Positions 1 to 58,761 of a stretch of DNA of 64,000 bases are shown here, piece after piece. The DNA lies in assembly GCF_053078305.1 (NCBI RefSeq), contig NZ_CP166879.1. One strand, 5' to 3'. The notes beneath the pieces were generated by a model. The model did not search any database and was not told the DNA's origin. It saw only the letters and a list, made by a program, of their open reading frames with translations. The position numbers were made by a program, and so were the translations under genes. The stretch's first letter is position 1. The number at the start of each line of letters is the position of its first letter.

Positions 1-111
1 CCCGCTGATATCATGCCGCTCTACCTTTGGCTGATGGGCGATGACAGCCGCCGTAAAACCGGCATGACCTTTGACGCCCAACCGGGCCGTAAACCAGGAA
101 TTTCCCAATGA
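1..111 (+). CDS. yciK: 3' end of upstream gene (partial), probable short-chain dehydrogenase YciK
   Basis: Frame-1 translation ends ...GRKPGISQ with stop at 109-111 overlapping the btuR ATG (ATGA); yciK-btuR adjacency is from recalled K-12 gene order. Confidence 0.55.
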   Translation, partial: PADIMPLYLWLMGDDSRRKTGMTFDAQPGRKPGISQ

Positions 112-698
112 GTGATGAACGCTACCAACAGCGTCAGCAACGAGTGAAAGAGAAAGTAGATGCTCGTGTGGCCCAGGCCCAGGATGAACGCGGTATTATC
201 ATCGTCTTTACCGGCAATGGAAAAGGCAAAACCACCGCGGCATTTGGTACGGCAACACGCGCAGTTGGTCACGGAAAAAAAGTGGGCGTCGTGCAGTTTA
301 TTAAAGGCACCTGGCCTAATGGCGAACGCAATCTGCTGGAGCCACATGGCGTTGAGTTTCAGGTGATGGCAACGGGCTTTACCTGGGATACACAAAACCG
401 CGAGTCTGATACCGCCGCCTGCCGCGAAGTCTGGCAACATGCAAAGCGGATGCTTGCTGATTCCTCACTGGATATGGTTTTGCTCGATGAGCTGACATAT
501 ATGGTGGCGTATGACTATTTGCCACTGGAAGAAGTGTTGCAGGCGTTAAATGAACGTCCACATCAACAGACGGTGATTATCACGGGTCGAGGCTGTCATC
601 GGGATATTCTTGAACTGGCGGATACGGTGAGTGAGTTGCGCCCCATCAAACATGCGTTTGATGCCGGTGTAAAAGCGCAGATAGGGATCGATTATTAA
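108..698 (+). CDS. btuR: cob(I)alamin adenosyltransferase
   Basis: 196 aa ORF with P-loop-like GNGKGKTTAAFG and full-length match to recalled BtuR/CobO. Confidence 0.9.
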   Translation: MSDERYQQRQQRVKEKVDARVAQAQDERGIIIVFTGNGKGKTTAAFGTATRAVGHGKKVGVVQFIKGTWPNGERNLLEPHGVEFQVMATGFTWDTQNRESDTAACREVWQHAKRMLADSSLDMVLLDELTYMVAYDYLPLEEVLQALNERPHQQTVIITGRGCHRDILELADTVSELRPIKHAFDAGVKAQIGIDY

Positions 699-737
699 TC
701 TGTAAAAATGCCGGATATGACGTCCGGCATACTTTGA

Positions 738-1610
738 TTAACCGTTATTACGTCCGCCAGAACGACGACCGCCGCTCACCTGACTGTGACGTTTCACCGC
801 ACGACGAATCTGATTCGCCTTCATGCGACGACGGTCTTTTTCTACAGCGACTTTAGAGCTGGTTTCTGGCGGTAGCTCCACCAGTTCGCGCAGATAGTTA
901 GTCTGGGCGAGGTCCAGCTCCGTCCAGCCACCGCGTGGCAGACCTTTTGGCAGTGGGATATCACCGTAACGAACACGGATCAGGCGGCTCACCTGCACAC
1001 CAACCGCTTCCCACAGACGACGAACTTCACGGTTACGGCCTTCGGTCAGAGTCACGTTGTACCACTGGTTGATCCCTTCGCCGCCGCTGAACTTGATGGT
1101 TTTAAAAGCTGCCGGACCATCTTCCAACTGCACGCCACGACTCAAATCACGCAGTTTCGCGTCGTCAACCTGACCAAATACACGCACGGCATATTCACGT
1201 TCAACTTCACGGCTTGGGTGCATTAAACGGTTTGCCAGTTCACCATCGGTGGTGAACAGCAGCAGACCACAGGTATTAACGTCCAAGCGACCCACGGCAA
1301 TCCAGCGTGCGCCACGCAGTTTTGGCAGACGGTCAAACACCGTTGGACGTCCTTCCGGATCGTTACGGGTACACAACTCACCTTCCGGTTTGTAATAGGC
1401 CAGAACGCGACAAATTTGTTCAGCGGACTCACGTACCGAAATCAGGTGACCATCGATACGGATTTTCAATCCAGGGGTAACTTCAACGCGATCGCCGAGT
1501 TTAGCAATTTTGCCATCAACACTCACACGACCGGCTTCAATAATAGATTCGATTTCACGGCGAGAACCGTGGCCGGCACGCGCCAGCACTTTCTGTAGCT
1601 TTTCGCTCAT
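738..1610 (-). CDS. rluB: 23S rRNA pseudouridine synthase RluB
   Basis: 290 aa ORF, S4 domain plus pseudouridine synthase core and basic C-terminal tail, matches recalled RluB. Confidence 0.9.
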
Positions 1611-1822
1611 AGAGCTTCCTTTTGGTGTCGCCTTCCCAGGCGTCTGATATGCTTTTGTGCAACAGTGAGTCAGAACTTACATCTGACTCACTGATAGTAA
1701 AGTCTGTTTGAACTCTTCAGGCCTTAAGTAAACGACTCGACGTTTTAACTGGCCTGGCTTTGAGGCGCAACATACTACACTATCTTTATGGTTAAAGCTT
1801 GTTTCGATTATCATCAGCTTAA

Positions 1823-2458
1823 TTACCAGCCACCACCGCCTCCGCCACCCGCGCCGCCGCCAGCACCACCACCGGAATAACTTCGCCCCAACAAACTGGT
1901 ATTGGCCCCCAGACTCAGGTGCATCTGTAATGAGAACAAAACGCCACTACGGGCAATTTCCGGGGCGCTAACAGCCGCTGTGAGTGATGGGGTGATACGT
2001 GCTACCCATTCTCTTCCAAGGTTTGCTGAGACTGCCCAACCTGGCAACGCGTAATCCAGTTTCCGTGTTTCCCCTTTCCGCCGCCGCCCACTGTGTGTTG
2101 CCGCCTCTTTACGCGCAAGATAGTTAACGATAGCTTCACCGTGGGCATAACGTTGCTGCCCAGTTTGGGTAAACTTTGGCAGAAAAATATACCCCATACC
2201 AGTGAGATAACCGGTCAGGAAAACAGCGCTAAAATAACCCGCTGGCATATACCAGTAAAAGAATACATCTCCGACATTGATATAGAGAGAATAAAAGGCC
2301 ACGCCTGAACAAATCAGCGGTAAAAACAAAGTGATGATTACACGATTAACGCAAGGCTTGTCATCATCGCGGGCAAACAAAAGCTCAAGGGAGCAAAATA
2401 AAAAAGGAAGAAGCCAGCAGATCATAATAAACATATCGCCCATGTAACCAGGTAAATC
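1823..2458 (-). pseudogene. yciQ: yciQ 3' fragment (C-terminal part of DUF2207-type membrane protein), separated from its 5' part by the prophage
   Basis: ORF with hydrophobic segments and Gly-rich C-terminus; the other half of the same gene is on the same strand at 41765-43030. Junction position approximate. Confidence 0.75.
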
Positions 2459-2459
2459 A

Positions 2460-2616
2460 TTTGATACCGACAAGGGTTTTAGTGAAAGGAGGTGAAATCA
2501 CCTGTAAGATACTGAAATAAAACAGGTGATCGATGATTCTGGAGGTTGTTTAGTTTTGATACTGATTAAATAAAATCCGGTATAAAATTAAGGTATCGGC
2601 AACAAATTTGATACTG
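2460..2616. repeat. left-end transposase-binding repeats (attL-like), copies of GATAC(C/T)G / CGGTATC
   Basis: Seen at 2460-2470, 2555-2566, 2592-2599 (inverted) and 2607-2616; same motif clustered at the right end. Confidence 0.6.
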
Positions 2617-2747
2617 CACATACTGCTTATGGACGTTTTTAAAAGTACTTAAAATGTCTTTTATGCTAAAAAGTTTATATCAATATCGATCTGGTCACAA
2701 ATCAAGTTGAAAGTGCTCGCTAAGTGCATAGCCTGGGCTTCATGGGG

Positions 2748-3266
2748 TTACGCTTTGGCTTCTTTATGGGTTAAATTGAAATGATGCTCCTTGGTTTCAT
2801 CTCCCTCGAAAATCTCTCTAACCTTTTGATCTGATAAATTATTAAGGCTCAATGCTGCCAGGCGTCGAATACCTGTTAAAGCGATCAACTCTTGATTCTC
2901 TTGATTGCAGAATTCCAGCAATTTTTCTACCCCTTTCCTTCTCAAGGTGTAAATAACTAATTCTTGCTCTTCTTGGCTCAAAGTGTCGATGAGTTCGAGC
3001 AACTCGCTATTGCCACCGTTCTTTTGAGGGGGCTGGTGTTTTATTTCTGCACTACCTGTAATGATGGAAACAACATGTGCAGGTAAGTCGCTTAAACGGT
3101 AGGCAAATGCTCTCCCTCTGATACCAGGTGTAGTTACCGAACGTTTTTCCCATCCTTCATTTTTTGCTCGTTTATGAAGCCCAGCCAGAGATGAAGGAAG
3201 ACCTCCAACCCCCAACAAGTCACTGGCAAGGATCCATTCTTGGTCAAGGATCATATCAAACTCCAT
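2748..3266 (-). CDS. Mu c-like repressor
   Basis: Leftward 172 aa ORF at the left end; its N-terminal motif DLxGxGGLPSSLAGLHKRAKNEGW is shared with the transposase N-terminus (DLPSSLAGLHKKAKREAW), as in Mu c and A. Confidence 0.75.
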   Translation of the reverse strand: MEFDMILDQEWILASDLLGVGGLPSSLAGLHKRAKNEGWEKRSVTTPGIRGRAFAYRLSDLPAHVVSIITGSAEIKHQPPQKNGGNSELLELIDTLSQEEQELVIYTLRRKGVEKLLEFCNQENQELIALTGIRRLAALSLNNLSDQKVREIFEGDETKEHHFNLTHKEAKA

Positions 3267-41764: not shown

Positions 41765-43030
41765 AAATCGCCGCGCTATACCCACCAGACTCATTCCTGC
41801 CCAGCCTACAGGACTCAGGTTACCGTAAAGAATGACCGCCAATATTGCCAGTCCACCCCATTGCAAAAAAGTATCAGGCCGGTAAAACGAAGACTTTTTA
41901 CGCGGCAGATAAAATTTCTGCATCCGTAAAAATGCCCTGCGTAAGACTCTGTTGCGTCTCCCCGTAAGAACGACCTTATCGCCTTTACGAAATAACGCTT
42001 CCAGTAATAACTGCTCTGCGGGCAGTAATACCTCATTATTTCTGGTCGCGCCTTCATTAACACGAATCAGGATTTGCTGGTTCTTATCATACTGATCTTC
42101 CAGATGAATTTTTCCTTTCACAATCAGATTTACGATATCGGCACAAAACCCTTTATCGTCGTAAACCAGCTTCGCATCGAGACGTAACATGCCGGGCGTG
42201 TAATCTGGCGGAATGACATCGGTTTCAATCACATCTACCGGCGTAAATTGCGGCCTGCGCTTCCAGAGATATAACCATCCACAAACCAGGAATAGACACG
42301 GAAACCAAATTAACAACGATGACGTGGAGGGTAAAAGAAGATGGCTGAAAATATTCGTCGTTTGTGGAGCCGGGGCATTGCTAAGTAACGAGTGAGGCCA
42401 ACGGTAGAGGACCGTGAAATCTTCACGATAAAACGGATCGCTGGATTCAATTCTTCCGTCCTCAAGGATGCGGCCATTTCGATATGTGTCGCCCTCTTCT
42501 CCAGTAAAGAGATCGATTTCGCTAAATGGATTACCCGCGATATCAGGGAACTTGAGTGAAAATCGGGTCTTATAGATTTCAAACGGCCAGTGGTTACCAG
42601 TCACGTTCCAGATTAACAGATCTGAATCTCCCTCACGCAGGAAAGCATTTTTAACCTGATAATGAATTTGATAATGATAGTCGCCTTGGGGCAAGAAACG
42701 TTGTTTATCGCCCACGACAATACTCATTAACCCGATATGCCAGTCAAGATGCCAGGGTTCAGGAATACCATCACGGGTTACGCCAACAATATGATAGTTC
42801 AGCAGTGCTGCGTCCCCATCAGGCTGCATCCAGAGTCGTGGTAAATCACGATAAAATCCGTGCTTAATCTGCTGATTTCGCGCCTGAAAATGAATGTTCT
42901 CTTTGATGTCGAGCACCCCATCCGGTTGCAGAGTGGCTTCAGAAGGGATCTCCGTGTTTTCTGCATAACTTAGAGATGATACAAACAGCCCTGCTATCAA
43001 CAGCAAAATGCAGCGAAACTTCCCTGCCAT
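41759..43030 (-). pseudogene. yciQ: yciQ 5' fragment (N-terminal part), truncated by the prophage; stop codon formed at the junction
   Basis: 423 aa ORF with signal peptide whose TGA (41759-41761) lies inside the phage terminal motif. Confidence 0.75.
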
Positions 43031-46392: not shown

Positions 46393-47987
46393 TGGCTGAC
46401 ATTCTGCTGCTCGATAATATCGACTCTTTTACGTACAACCTGGCAGATCAGTTGCGCAGCAATGGGCATAACGTGGTGATTTACCGCAACCATATTCCGG
46501 CGCAAACCTTAATTGAACGCCTGGCGACGATGAGCAATCCGGTGCTGATGCTTTCTCCGGGGCCAGGTGTGCCGAGTGAAGCCGGTTGTATGCCAGAACT
46601 CCTCACCCGCTTGCGCGGTAAGCTGCCGATTATTGGCATTTGCCTCGGTCATCAGGCGATTGTCGAAGCCTACGGGGGGTATGTCGGTCAGGCGGGCGAA
46701 ATTCTTCACGGTAAAGCCTCCAGCATTGAACATGACGGTCAGGCGATGTTTGCCGGATTAACAAACCCATTGCCGGTGGCGCGTTATCACTCGCTGGTTG
46801 GCAGTAATATTCCGGCCGGTTTAACCATCAACGCCCATTTTAATGGCATGGTGATGGCGGTGCGTCACGATGCAGATCGCGTTTGCGGATTCCAGTTCCA
46901 CCCGGAATCCATTCTCACCACCCAGGGCGCTCGCCTGCTGGAACAAACGCTGGCCTGGGCGCAGCAGAAACTAGAGCCAACCAACACGCTGCAACCGATT
47001 CTGGAAAAACTGTATCAGGCGCAGACCCTTAGCCAGCAGGAAAGTCATCAGCTATTTTCAGCGGTGGTACGTGGCGAACTGAAACCGGAACAACTGGCGG
47101 CGGCGCTGGTGAGCATGAAAATTCGCGGCGAGCACCCGAACGAGATCGCCGGAGCAGCAACCGCGCTACTGGAAAACGCAGCGCCGTTCCCGCGCCCGGA
47201 TTATCTGTTTGCTGATATCGTCGGTACTGGCGGTGACGGCAGCAACAGTATCAATATTTCTACCGCCAGTGCGTTTGTCGCCGCGGCCTGTGGGCTGAAA
47301 GTGGCGAAACACGGCAACCGTAGCGTCTCCAGTAAATCTGGTTCGTCCGATCTGCTGGCGGCGTTCGGTATTAATCTTGATATGAACGCCGATAAATCGC
47401 GCCAGGCGCTGGATGAGTTAGGCGTATGTTTCCTCTTTGCGCCGAAATATCACACCGGATTCCGCCACGCGATGCCGGTTCGCCAGCAACTGAAAACCCG
47501 CACCCTGTTCAATGTGCTGGGGCCATTGATTAACCCGGCGCATCCGCCGCTGGCGTTAATTGGTGTTTATAGTCCGGAACTGGTGCTGCCGATTGCCGAA
47601 ACCTTGCGCGTGCTGGGGTATCAACGCGCGGCGGTGGTGCACAGCGGCGGGATGGATGAAGTTTCATTACACGCGCCGACAATCGTTGCCGAGCTGCACG
47701 ATGGCGAAATTAAGAGCTATCAGCTGACCGCAGAAGACTTTGGCCTGACACCCTACCACCAGGAGCAACTGGCAGGCGGAACACCGGAAGAAAACCGTGA
47801 CATTTTAACACGCTTGTTACAAGGTAAAGGCGACGCCGCCCATGAAGCAGCCGTCGCGGCGAACGTCGCCATGTTAATGCGCTTGCATGGCCATGAAGAT
47901 CTGCAAGCCAATGCGCAAACCGTTCTTGAGGTACTGCGCAGTGGTTCCGCTTACGACAGAGTCACCGCACTGGCGGCTCGAGGGTAA
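46392..47987 (+). CDS. trpD: anthranilate synthase component II / anthranilate phosphoribosyltransferase
   Basis: 531 aa bifunctional protein, start overlaps the trpE stop. Confidence 0.95.
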
Positions 47988-49349
47988 ATGATGCAAACCG
48001 TTTTAGCGAAAATCGTCGCAGACAAGGCGATTTGGGTAGAAGCCCGCAAACAGCAGCAACCGCTGGCCAGTTTTCAGAATGAGGTTCAGCCGAGCACGCG
48101 ACATTTTTATGATGCGCTACAGGGTGCACGCACGGCGTTTATTCTGGAGTGCAAGAAAGCGTCGCCGTCAAAAGGCGTGATCCGTGATGATTTCGATCCG
48201 GCACGCATTGCAACCGTCTACAGAAATTACGCTTCGGCAATTTCGGTGCTGACTGACGAGAAATATTTCCAGGGAAGCTTTGATTTTCTCCCCATCGTCA
48301 GCCAAATCGCGCCACAGCCGATTTTGTGTAAAGACTTCATTATCGACCCTTACCAGATCTATCTGGCGCGCTATTACCAGGCTGATGCCTGTTTATTAAT
48401 GCTTTCAGTACTGGATGACGAACAATATCGCCAGCTTGCCGCCGTCGCCCACAGTCTGGAGATGGGTGTGCTGACCGAAGTCAGTAATGAAGAGGAACTG
48501 GAGCGCGCCATTGCATTAGGGGCAAAGGTCGTTGGCATCAACAACCGCGATCTGCGTGATTTGTCGATTGATCTCAACCGTACCCGCGAGCTTGCGCCGA
48601 AACTGGGGCACAACGTGACGGTAATCAGCGAATCCGGAATCAATACTTACGCTCAGGTGCGCGAGTTAAGCCACTTCGCTAACGGTTTTCTGATTGGTTC
48701 GGCGTTGATGGCCCATGACGATTTGCACGCCGCCGTGCGCCGGGTATTGCTGGGTGAGAATAAAGTATGTGGCCTGACGCGTGGGCAAGATGCTAAAGCA
48801 GCGTATGACGCGGGCGCGATTTACGGTGGGTTGATTTTTGTTGCGACATCACCGCGTTGCGTCAACGTTGAACAGGCGCAGGAAGTGATGGCTGCGGCAC
48901 CGTTGCAGTATGTTGGCGTGTTCCGCAATCACGATATTGCCGAGGTGGTGGACAAAGCTAAGGTGTTATCGCTGGCGGCAGTGCAACTGCATGGTAATGA
49001 AGATCAGCTGTATATCGATACGCTGCGTGAAGCTCTGCCAGCACACGTTGCCATCTGGAAAGCATTAAGCGTCGGTGAAACCCTGCCCGCCCGCGAGCTT
49101 CAGCACGTTGATAAATATGTTTTAGACAACGGCCAGGGTGGAAGCGGGCAACGTTTCGACTGGTCACTATTAAATGGTCAATCGCTTGGCAACGTTCTGC
49201 TGGCGGGGGGCTTAGGCGCAGATAACTGCGTGGAAGCGGCACAAACCGGCTGCGCCGGACTTGATTTTAATTCTGCTGTAGAGTCGCAACCGGGCATCAA
49301 AGACGCACGTCTTTTGGCCTCGGTTTTCCAGACGCTGCGCGCATATTAA
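47988..49349 (+). CDS. trpC: indole-3-glycerol phosphate synthase / phosphoribosylanthranilate isomerase
   Basis: 453 aa starting [21 protein letters not shown]…. Confidence 0.95.
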
Positions 49350-51394: not shown

Positions 51395-51740
51395 ACTTTC
51401 TTTAACGAAGCCGGAAAAATCCTAAATTCATTTAATATTTATCTTTTTACCGTTTCGCTTACCCCTGTCAAACGTCAACTTACGTCATTTTTCCGCCCAA
51501 CAGTAATATAATCAAACAAATTAATCCCGCAACATAACACCAGTAAAATCAATAATTTTCTCTAAGTCACTTATTTCTCAGGCAATTGTTAATATATCAA
51601 GAACGTTCCTCATAATATATTTTCCCACTTTATTCTCGTTACGCTTAATTTGACTAATTCTCATTGGCGACTAATTTTAATGAGTGTCGACACACAACAC
51701 TCATATTAATGAAACAATGCAACGCAACGGGAGAAATAAC

Positions 51741-51920
51741 ATGGCCGAACATCGTGGTGGTTCAGGAAATTTCGCCGAAGACCGTGAGAAGGCATCCGAC
51801 GCAGGCCGTAAAGGCGGTCAGCATAGCGGCGGTAATTTTAAAAATGATCCGCAACGCGCATCTGAAGCGGGTAAAAAAGGCGGTCAACAAAACGGTGGTA
51901 ATAAATCAGGTAAATCCTGA
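51741..51920 (+). CDS. yciG: KGG-repeat general stress protein YciG
   Basis: 59 aa from ATG 51741 with repeated KGG motifs and SD GGGAGA upstream. Confidence 0.8.
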   Translation: MAEHRGGSGNFAEDREKASDAGRKGGQHSGGNFKNDPQRASEAGKKGGQQNGGNKSGKS

Positions 51921-52005
51921 TTCACCGTTAATTATTAATATCAGCTGATAAAGATAATTGCATCTGCGGGCCATATGGCTCGCAGTGATTCCACTGGAGA
52001 AAAAT

Positions 52006-52506
52006 ATGAATATGAAGACCATTGAAGATGTATTTATTCACCTGCTTTCAGATACCTAAAGCGCAGAAAAACAATTAACCCGGGCACTGGCAAAACTCGC
52101 AAGAGCAACATCAAACGAAAAATTAAGTCAGGCTTTTCATGCGCACCTCGAGGAAACACATGGACAGATTGAACGTATTGATCAAGTTGTGGAATCAGAA
52201 TCGAATCTGAAAATTAAGCGCATGAAATGTGTGGCAATGGAAGGTCTTATTGAAGAAGCTAATGAGGTCATCGAAAGTACCGAGAAAAACGAAGTGCGTG
52301 ATGCCGCACTGATTGCCGCAGCACAGAAAGTCGAGCATTATGAGATTGCCAGTTACGGGACATTAGCGACGCTGGCTGAACAATTAGGTTACCGTAAAGC
52401 AGCGAAGCTTCTGAAAGAAACCCTGGAAGAAGAAAAGGCCACCGACATCAAACTGACTGATCTGGCCCTTAATAACGTAAATAAGAAAGCCGAAAATAAA
52501 GCCTGA
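52006..52506 (+). pseudogene. yciF: yciF (DUF892-type) interrupted by in-frame TAA at 52057-52059
   Basis: ATG 52006 with SD; MNMKTIEDVFIHLLSDT then TAA, after which the same frame continues SAEKQLTRALAKLA… to the stop at 52506; I recall Tyr at this codon in K-12. Confidence 0.65.
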
Positions 52507-52551
52507 AATATGAACTTTAACTTTTAGTCATTTTATAAAGAGGACATTTTC

Positions 52552-53058
52552 ATGAATCGTATTGAACATTATCATGACTGGTTACGTGACGCCCACGCAA
52601 TGGAAAAGCAAGCCGAATCTATGCTTGAATCCATGGCCAGCCGTATAGATAATTATCCTGAACTACGCGCTCGTATTGAACAACATCTTAGTGAAACCAA
52701 AAACCAGATTGTTCAACTGGAAACTATTCTTGATCGTAATGACATTTCACGTTCAGTCATTAAAGATTCCATGAGTAAAATAGCTGCGCTTGGGCAGTCA
52801 ATCGGTGGTATATTCCCTTCTGATGAAATAGTCAAAGGTTCTATTAGCGGGTATGTCTTCGAGCAATTTGAAATCGCCTGTTATACTTCACTATTAGCAG
52901 CAGCAAAAAATGCCGGTGATACAGCCTCAATTCCGATCATCGAAGCGATTTTAAATGAGGAAAAGCAAATGGCCGATTGGCTGATTCAGCATATTCCGCA
53001 AACAACTGAGAAATTTTTAATTCGCTCTGAAACTGATGGCGTAGAAGCGAAGAAATAA
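52552..53058 (+). CDS. yciE: DUF892-type protein YciE
   Basis: 168 aa, paralog of yciF. Confidence 0.9.
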   Translation: MNRIEHYHDWLRDAHAMEKQAESMLESMASRIDNYPELRARIEQHLSETKNQIVQLETILDRNDISRSVIKDSMSKIAALGQSIGGIFPSDEIVKGSISGYVFEQFEIACYTSLLAAAKNAGDTASIPIIEAILNEEKQMADWLIQHIPQTTEKFLIRSETDGVEAKK

Positions 53059-53117
53059 TACCCTTTATGCCATGTCCTTATTGACCCCGTATATTACGGG
53101 GTCGTTTTTGTGCGGAA

Positions 53118-53756
53118 TTAAAAACGATATCCTGCTGAGAACATAAACACCCACGGATCGAGGCGTACGCTATCATGTTGCTGTGCACCGCCCAGTTTAT
53201 AATTGGCGGTGGTATCGATATCCATGTACCACACTGACATGTTAACCAACCAGTCACGGTTAATCAGATAATCAACCCCCACCTGCCCGGCAGCTCCCCA
53301 GGAATCTTTCAGACTGAGATCGGAAAGCCCCGCCTCTTTGCCATGATCGTTAAATCCATTATCAAAGAAGGTGGTGTAGTTAATACCTGCCCCAACATAA
53401 GGACGGAATTTGCTGCTGGCATCACCAAAATACCACTGCGCCATCAGTGTTGGCGGCAGATGATGAACGGTTGCAATCTCGCCGGTCGCCCGGGTGCCGA
53501 TTTTATGGCGGAACGGCGTCGCTGCCAGTAATTCCACACCAATGTTGTCGGTCGCCATATAAGTAAACGTCAGGCCCAGTTGCGTGTTATTGGTCACGCT
53601 GAATCCGCCCAGACTTCCTAACGTACCACCAGCACCTTCTGTTGGACGTACGGTTGCAGAACCTGCACGCATAAAAAATTCGCCTGCTTCATGCGCAAAG
53701 GCACTGCCAGAGAGAAGAGTTGTTACTGCCAAAGCCGCCACTGTTAACTTTTTCAT
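53118..53756 (-). CDS. ompW: outer membrane protein W
   Basis: 212 aa with signal peptide and C-terminal aromatic residue (…GYRF), matches recalled OmpW. Confidence 0.95.
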   Translation of the reverse strand: MKKLTVAALAVTTLLSGSAFAHEAGEFFMRAGSATVRPTEGAGGTLGSLGGFSVTNNTQLGLTFTYMATDNIGVELLAATPFRHKIGTRATGEIATVHHLPPTLMAQWYFGDASSKFRPYVGAGINYTTFFDNGFNDHGKEAGLSDLSLKDSWGAAGQVGVDYLINRDWLVNMSVWYMDIDTTANYKLGGAQQHDSVRLDPWVFMFSAGYRF

Positions 53757-57506: not shown

Positions 57507-58761
57507 GTGAGTCACTGGGCTACATTCAAACAAACAGCAACAAATTTATGGGTGACCCTACGGCACGACATTCTCGCGCTGGCCGTCTTTTTAAATGGAT
57601 TGCTTATTTTTAAAACAATCTATGGTATGTCGGTCAATTTGCTTGATATTTTCCATATCAAAGCATTTTCAGAGTTGGATCTCTCCTTGCTGGCAAACGC
57701 CCCACTATTTATGCTCGGCGTCTTTCTTGTCCTGAACTCCATTGGCTTACTGTTCCGGGCAAAGCTCGCATGGGCAATCAGTATCATTTTGTTGTTGATA
57801 GCGCTAATTTACACCCTGCATTTTTATCCCTGGCTGAAATTTAGTATTGGATTTTGCATTTTTACGCTGGTGTTTTTGCTGATACTGCGCAAAGACTTCT
57901 CCCACAGTAGCGCCGCAGCCGGGACAATTTTTGCATTTATTAGTTTCACGACATTACTGTTTTACTCAACCTACGGTGCGCTTTATTTAAGCGAAGGTTT
58001 TAATCCGCGAATAGAAAGTTTGATGACCGCGTTCTATTTTTCGATAGAAACCATGTCAACCGTCGGCTATGGAGATATTGTCCCTGTTTCTGAATCAGCA
58101 CGATTGTTCACTATTTCGGTCATTATTTCCGGCATTACCGTTTTTGCCACATCTATGACCTCAATTTTTGGTCCGCTTATCCGCGGGGGATTCAACAAAC
58201 TTGTAAAAGGAAACAATCATACAATGCATCGTAAAGATGCATTTTATTGTTTGCGGACATTCGATTCTCGCCATCAATACGATCCTGCAACTGAATCAAC
58301 GCGGACAAAACGTAACGGTTATCAGCAACTTGCCTGAAGATGATATCAAGCAACTTGAGCAACGCTTAGGCGATAACGCAGATGTTATCCCCGGTGACAG
58401 TAATGACAGTTCTGTATTAAAGAAAGCGGGAATCGATCGTTGCCGGGCCATTCTGGCGCTGAGTGATAACGATGCAGATAACGCGTTTGTTGTACTCTCG
58501 GCAAAAGATATGAGCAGTGATGTCAAAACAGTTCTCGCCGTCAGTGATAGCAAAAACCTGAATAAGATTAAGATGGTACATCCGGATATCATTCTCTCAC
58601 CGCAACTGTTTGGCAGCGAAATTCTGGCGCGAGTTTTAAATGGTGAAGAGATTAATAATGATATGCTCGTTTCAATGTTGTTGAACTCCGGTCATGGCAT
58701 TTTCAGCGATAACGATGAACAAGAAACGAAAGCTGACAGTAAAGAATCGGTGCAAAAATAG
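57507..58761 (+). pseudogene. kch: voltage-gated K+ channel Kch with apparent +1 frameshift near 58236
   Basis: ORF from GTG 57507 matches Kch up to …NNHTMHRKD then changes frame; the downstream ORF (58237-58761) carries the Kch C-terminus from HFIVCGHSILAIN… An extra base near GATGCATTTT is the simplest explanation; a sequencing error is possible. Confidence 0.65.

Follow-up and report, generated by a model that had tools for sequence, protein, structure and literature searches.

The question raised by this locus is what an in-frame TAA at codon 18 of yciF, the second of the three genes in yciGFE, represents. These genes are described as an operon under activation by McbR (PMC7705038), and the yciGFE(katN) locus is sigma(S)-dependent according to the title of a paper cited in that source. 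An earlier note, made from the letters of the window (the whole 64,000-nt stretch of DNA analysed), had left two explanations side by side: a strain-specific nonsense mutation or a sequencing error. As set out below, the evidence favours, with a probability of about 0.92, a real and vertically inherited change from C to A at position 52059, which would have made yciF a pseudogene in a small clade of E. coli.

The yciF reading frame and its codon 18

Direct reading and translation of the sequence place the ATG of yciF at 52006-52008 and its normal stop, TGA, at 52504-52506. The conceptual translation, MNMKTIEDVFIHLLSDT*SAEKQL...AENKA*, is that of YciF on either side of the internal stop: 17 sense codons precede the TAA, and 148 sense codons of uninterrupted YciF follow it up to the TGA. 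The frame carries no second lesion and is otherwise undamaged. What the earlier note had described here, namely a proper start with its ribosome-binding site, a TAA after codon 17 and YciF-like sequence continuing to the normal stop, is borne out at each of these positions (Table 1). In the ORF table the frame is broken in two: a 33-aa ORF upstream, terminated by the TAA, and a residual ORF of 105 aa that starts with GTG. Read with Tyr in place of the stop, the frame matches PDB 2GS4 with E=2.5e-98; it is no chance ORF. The position is orthologous as well: gene-by-gene comparison with strain 14EC033 and with K-12 (yciF, b1258) finds the synteny trpA-yciG-yciF-yciE-ompW kept, with yciF in the middle of yciGFE between trpA and ompW.

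Table 1. Features of the window discussed in the text, with their positions.
Feature	Position	Strand	Remarks
yciG	51741..51920	+	first gene of yciGFE; intact, 59 aa
yciF Shine-Dalgarno GGAG	51996..51999	+	intact; 6-nt spacer to ATG; identical in F2_81
yciF pseudogene	52006..52506	+	167 codons with the final TGA; broken at codon 18
premature ochre stop TAA	52057..52059	+	Tyr18 TAC to TAA; mutated base 52059, C to A
residual GTG ORF, 105 aa	52189..52506	+	YciF residues 62-166; without Shine-Dalgarno
yciE	52552..53058	+	DUF892 paralogue downstream of yciF; intact, 168 aa
yciQ parts	41781-43030 and 1823-2442	-	separated by prophage
Mu-like transposable prophage, 39.3 kb	2443-41780		splits yciQ
MuA-like protein, 702 aa	3686-5794		within prophage
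MuB-like protein, 310 aa	5866-6798		within prophage
kch	57507-58761	+	split by +G at 58239

The Tyr codon (TAC) that the earlier note gave for K-12 is indeed codon 18 of yciF in MG1655 (NC_000913.3), where 7 of the 501 nt depart from the gene in the window. Only two of the differences alter the product, Y18* and I155L. Whereas K-12 has a Tyr codon at this site, the TAA of the window would yield only a 17-residue peptide, with the ferritin-like fold lost. The substitution has the form of the classical ochre mutations of Tyr codons (TAC or TAT to TAA), which likewise arise by a single third-position transversion and cause premature termination. The mechanism is the same as in the classical laboratory mutants, but the allele in the window is natural and fixed in a small clade.

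When 5,426 complete RefSeq E. coli genomes were searched by megablast with the yciGFE segment (51650-53100), 4,731 gave a match, the best of them at 99.7% identity. In the best match, F2_81, codon 18 is TAC and yciF differs from that of the window solely by the C to A at 52059; the identity to the intact yciF of both F2_81 and 14EC033 is 99.8%. Over a longer stretch no complete E. coli genome is close to the window, the best reaching 98.9% over 22 kb. A Shigella origin was considered on that account, but the proteins in the records of the sister assemblies bear the name Escherichia coli. The other 695 complete genomes have no match to yciG-yciF-yciE at all, and the whole locus may be missing or highly divergent in ~13% of strains. 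The frequency of the stop itself was determined by exact searches with 41-mers centred on codon 18, so that each 28-nt megablast seed has to cover base 52059. The TAA version occurs in 0 of the 5,426 complete genomes, while the TAC version, used as a positive control, occurs in 4,284; a sense codon at this site is found in the orthologues of K-12, F2_81 and these 4,284 genomes.

Inheritance of the stop in sister assemblies

Sister loci were collected partly through the residual products. Exact sequence look-ups of the truncated products of 105, 94 and 89 aa returned 104, 474 and 97 contigs, respectively, and the lesions were classified in 18 loci fetched by way of these products. Most of the 18 carry other mutations; the exception is L015 (GCA_018683495.1), which shares the TAA of the window and differs from it at 1 nt in 6,285. 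A sample independent of yciF status was drawn from loci that encode exactly the TrpC of the window, a divergent allele. Four of these nine loci (L022, GCA_018683035.1; L024, GCA_043582385.1; L025, GCA_043580205.1; L029, GCA_043597085.1) have the TAA and, over 15-17.5 kb, an identity of 99.97% to the window, while the other five (L023, L026-L028 and L030) have an intact 166-aa yciF and are 98.5-99% identical. With a Logan assembly made directly from SRA run SRR30292771 (L031), in which the TAA is likewise present, the same stop is found in six independent public assemblies, all 99.97-99.98% identical to the window and separated from it by 1-5 SNPs. A literature search with the accessions of the sister assemblies gave no match.

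The carriers are not copies of one another. Position 52083 is G or A among them, a synonymous difference (CGG/CGA), and the stop is therefore older than the diversification of the clade itself. Since the TAA is common to six independent and mutually polymorphic assemblies, it is inherited in a small clade and is no sequencing error. Close relatives with an identical TrpC have an intact yciF, and the TAA is evidently the derived state. Y18* has been seen only in the window's own clade and is, across the assemblies compared, clade-specific and not confined to a single strain. The earlier note's nonsense mutation stands, with clade-specific in place of strain-specific, and its alternative of a sequencing error falls. 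The comparison with yciF alleles of related strains, which the note had proposed as a check, finds relatives with TAC, but the closest ones have TAA.

The yciQ gene differs in the same clade: a 30-bp in-frame deletion near its 5' end gives a YciQ of 621 aa, compared with 631 aa in relatives. This 621-aa form was found as a second clade marker on 24 contigs from the 30 index blocks read, and both of the two neighbourhood types shown for these contigs have a 94-aa truncated yciF call. The deletion co-occurs with the yciF TAA and makes a handy marker for the clade.

Loss of the DUF892 domain and alternative explanations

With its stop repaired, YciF matches the Pfam profile DUF892 (PF05974; the 'YciE/YciF ferroxidase family') over residues 5-162 (E=4.7e-52), which is essentially the full length and places the gene in the family by profile. 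The protein folds into a ferritin-like four-helix bundle (PDB 2GS4 for E. coli, 4ERU for Salmonella). For the Salmonella orthologue, iron binding and a ferroxidase activity that requires two metal-binding sites of the domain are reported; its di-iron ligands are spread over the bundle, and the protein is reported to protect against ROS in bile stress (bioRxiv 10.1101/2023.01.20.524870). In the window, the ORF over the whole bundle is broken by the TAA at codon 18, and the largest residual ORF (105 aa) retains just positions 64-158 of the 159 in the profile.

At the level of sequence, these comparisons establish that the mutation exists, that it is inherited and rare, and that the domain is lost. 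As to the consequences, the C to A change at 52059 would have converted TAC (Tyr18) into the ochre codon TAA, and translation of yciF would start normally and terminate after 17 residues. The DUF892 four-helix-bundle ferroxidase would accordingly not be made. This loss is most likely tolerated, as yciF belongs to the dispensable stress genes and an intact paralogue, yciE, lies beside it, and the mutation may well be neutral. The locus is, to judge from these features, a pseudogene and not a functional member of the DUF892 family. Gene callers label the residual 105-aa ORF, or 94- and 89-aa versions starting at ATG, as 'YciF' or 'hypothetical protein'; these leftover ORFs downstream of the TAA are evidently annotation artefacts and not functional products.

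Had the stop arisen in sequencing or assembly, position 52059 would really be C and yciF would be intact. The window does differ from its sisters at further sites of its own, a +1 indel in kch among them, and this could signal some consensus errors. However, the TAA is not private, being present in the six independent assemblies, one of them derived directly from an SRA run, and it sits on backgrounds that differ at other sites; moreover, a substitution outside any homopolymer is atypical of consensus errors. The sequencing-error reading has next to no probability left and is, by these comparisons, effectively refuted. Slightly less remote, and still highly improbable, is a yciF that continues to function, either by readthrough or suppression of the UAA, for instance by an ochre suppressor derived from tRNA-Tyr, or by re-initiation to give an active, N-terminally truncated YciF. 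A suppressor of this kind would restore wild-type YciF. The absence of a second lesion in the frame agrees with continued function, as does the synonymous nature of the sole change within the clade, at 52083, but both are equally expected of a recent pseudogene. Of the stop codons in E. coli, UAA leaks least, and both release factors act on it, so that little readthrough is expected. The 64-kb window contains no tRNA gene, although a suppressor could lie elsewhere in the genome. Re-initiation was rejected as a rescue because the restart codons have no Shine-Dalgarno: the first in-frame one past the TAA, a GTG at codon 62, lies 130 nt downstream and would drop the first 61 residues, and no Shine-Dalgarno was found for any in-frame restart downstream of the TAA. 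Finally, programmed recoding sites are conserved across lineages, whereas this stop is limited to one small clade and is absent from the 5,426 complete genomes and from the nearest relatives outside the clade.

A different possibility accepts the inactivation and holds that loss of yciF is positively selected and recurrent across E. coli lineages rather than neutral decay, with Y18* as one convergent inactivation in a gene whose loss is advantageous in some niches. In the 18 loci fetched through truncated products, yciF was indeed inactivated independently in at least 11 other ways: by the nonsense mutations S15*, Q23*, L24*, R57* and Q60* (the last on two backgrounds), single-base frameshifts at nt 28, 74, 95, 113 and 179, and one 32-bp duplication. 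Like Y18*, these other E. coli nulls are independent point lesions that keep yciG and, in most loci, yciE, and they give the same residual ORF calls of 89, 94 and 105 aa; they differ from Y18* in position and genetic background. Truncated products on record from hundreds of contigs and the 695 complete genomes that have no yciGFE match point in the same direction. However, the loci were chosen by their truncated product, and such a diversity of lesions is expected from a collection of ~15 billion proteins. Each allele is also rare in the unbiased set of complete genomes, where Y18* and S15* each occur in 0 and R57* (TGA) in 4 of 5,426 (strains 2013C-4830, 2012C-4227, 90-3040 and 2013C-3492). 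The same considerations of ascertainment and database size, with alleles at 0-4 of 5,426, led to the rejection of a mutational hotspot in yciF. If loss of the iron-sequestering stress protein YciF were selected, it could benefit cells in some niches, but this reading is unlikely, and there is no evidence here for more than ordinary sporadic loss of a dispensable gene.

On this evidence, the inherited nonsense mutation has left yciF, a dispensable stress gene of the RpoS regulon, as an ordinary ochre pseudogene that is specific to one clade and had been sequenced before. Its significance is small. The allele marks a small clade of E. coli and predicts the loss of one ferritin-like stress protein of the RpoS regulon, and it accounts for the 'YciF' fragments of 89, 94 and 105 aa that gene callers report at the locus. 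It also offers a clean natural null allele for studies of yciGFE function.

Possible effects on yciE and other differences in the window

The yciE gene is now preceded by ~490 nt of untranslated yciF mRNA, and Rho-dependent polarity may lower its expression. The composition of the stretch does not support such an effect: it is rich in A (37%, with 19% C and 23% G), C exceeds G in a single short segment just past the stop, and no clear rut-like C-rich, G-poor tract was found by composition between the TAA and yciE.

In a comparison of 26 core genes with strain 14EC033, 23 are intact in the window, the exceptions being yciF, yciQ and kch. Three substitutions are private to the window, which has T at 47978, A at 48638 and C at 53232 where all sisters have A, C and G, respectively. 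The inserted G in kch is likewise private and absent from the sister assemblies. It shifts the frame of full-length Kch after D244, with a stop at 58335-58337, and also completes an ATG (58237-58239) in the native frame downstream. This ATG opens a 174-aa ORF (MHFIVCGH...) that encodes the entire C-terminal part of Kch, annotated as TrkA_N in the sisters. The insertion does not fall in a homopolymer (AAAGAT[G]CATTTT), and the extra base could either have truly split the gene or be an indel of the assembly. Together with the private substitutions, it indicates either an isolate slightly diverged from its sisters or a few consensus errors.

The interruption of yciQ is due to the Mu-like prophage, which is 94-95% identical to the regions described as 'inserted Bacteriophage Mu-like phage' in two Stx-converting phages, LC727881 and LC727895. 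The insertion site is empty in every sister assembly that reaches it. The prophage junctions share CCCA, and inverted copies of TTTGATACCGA are found at both ends, 17 nt in from the tip.
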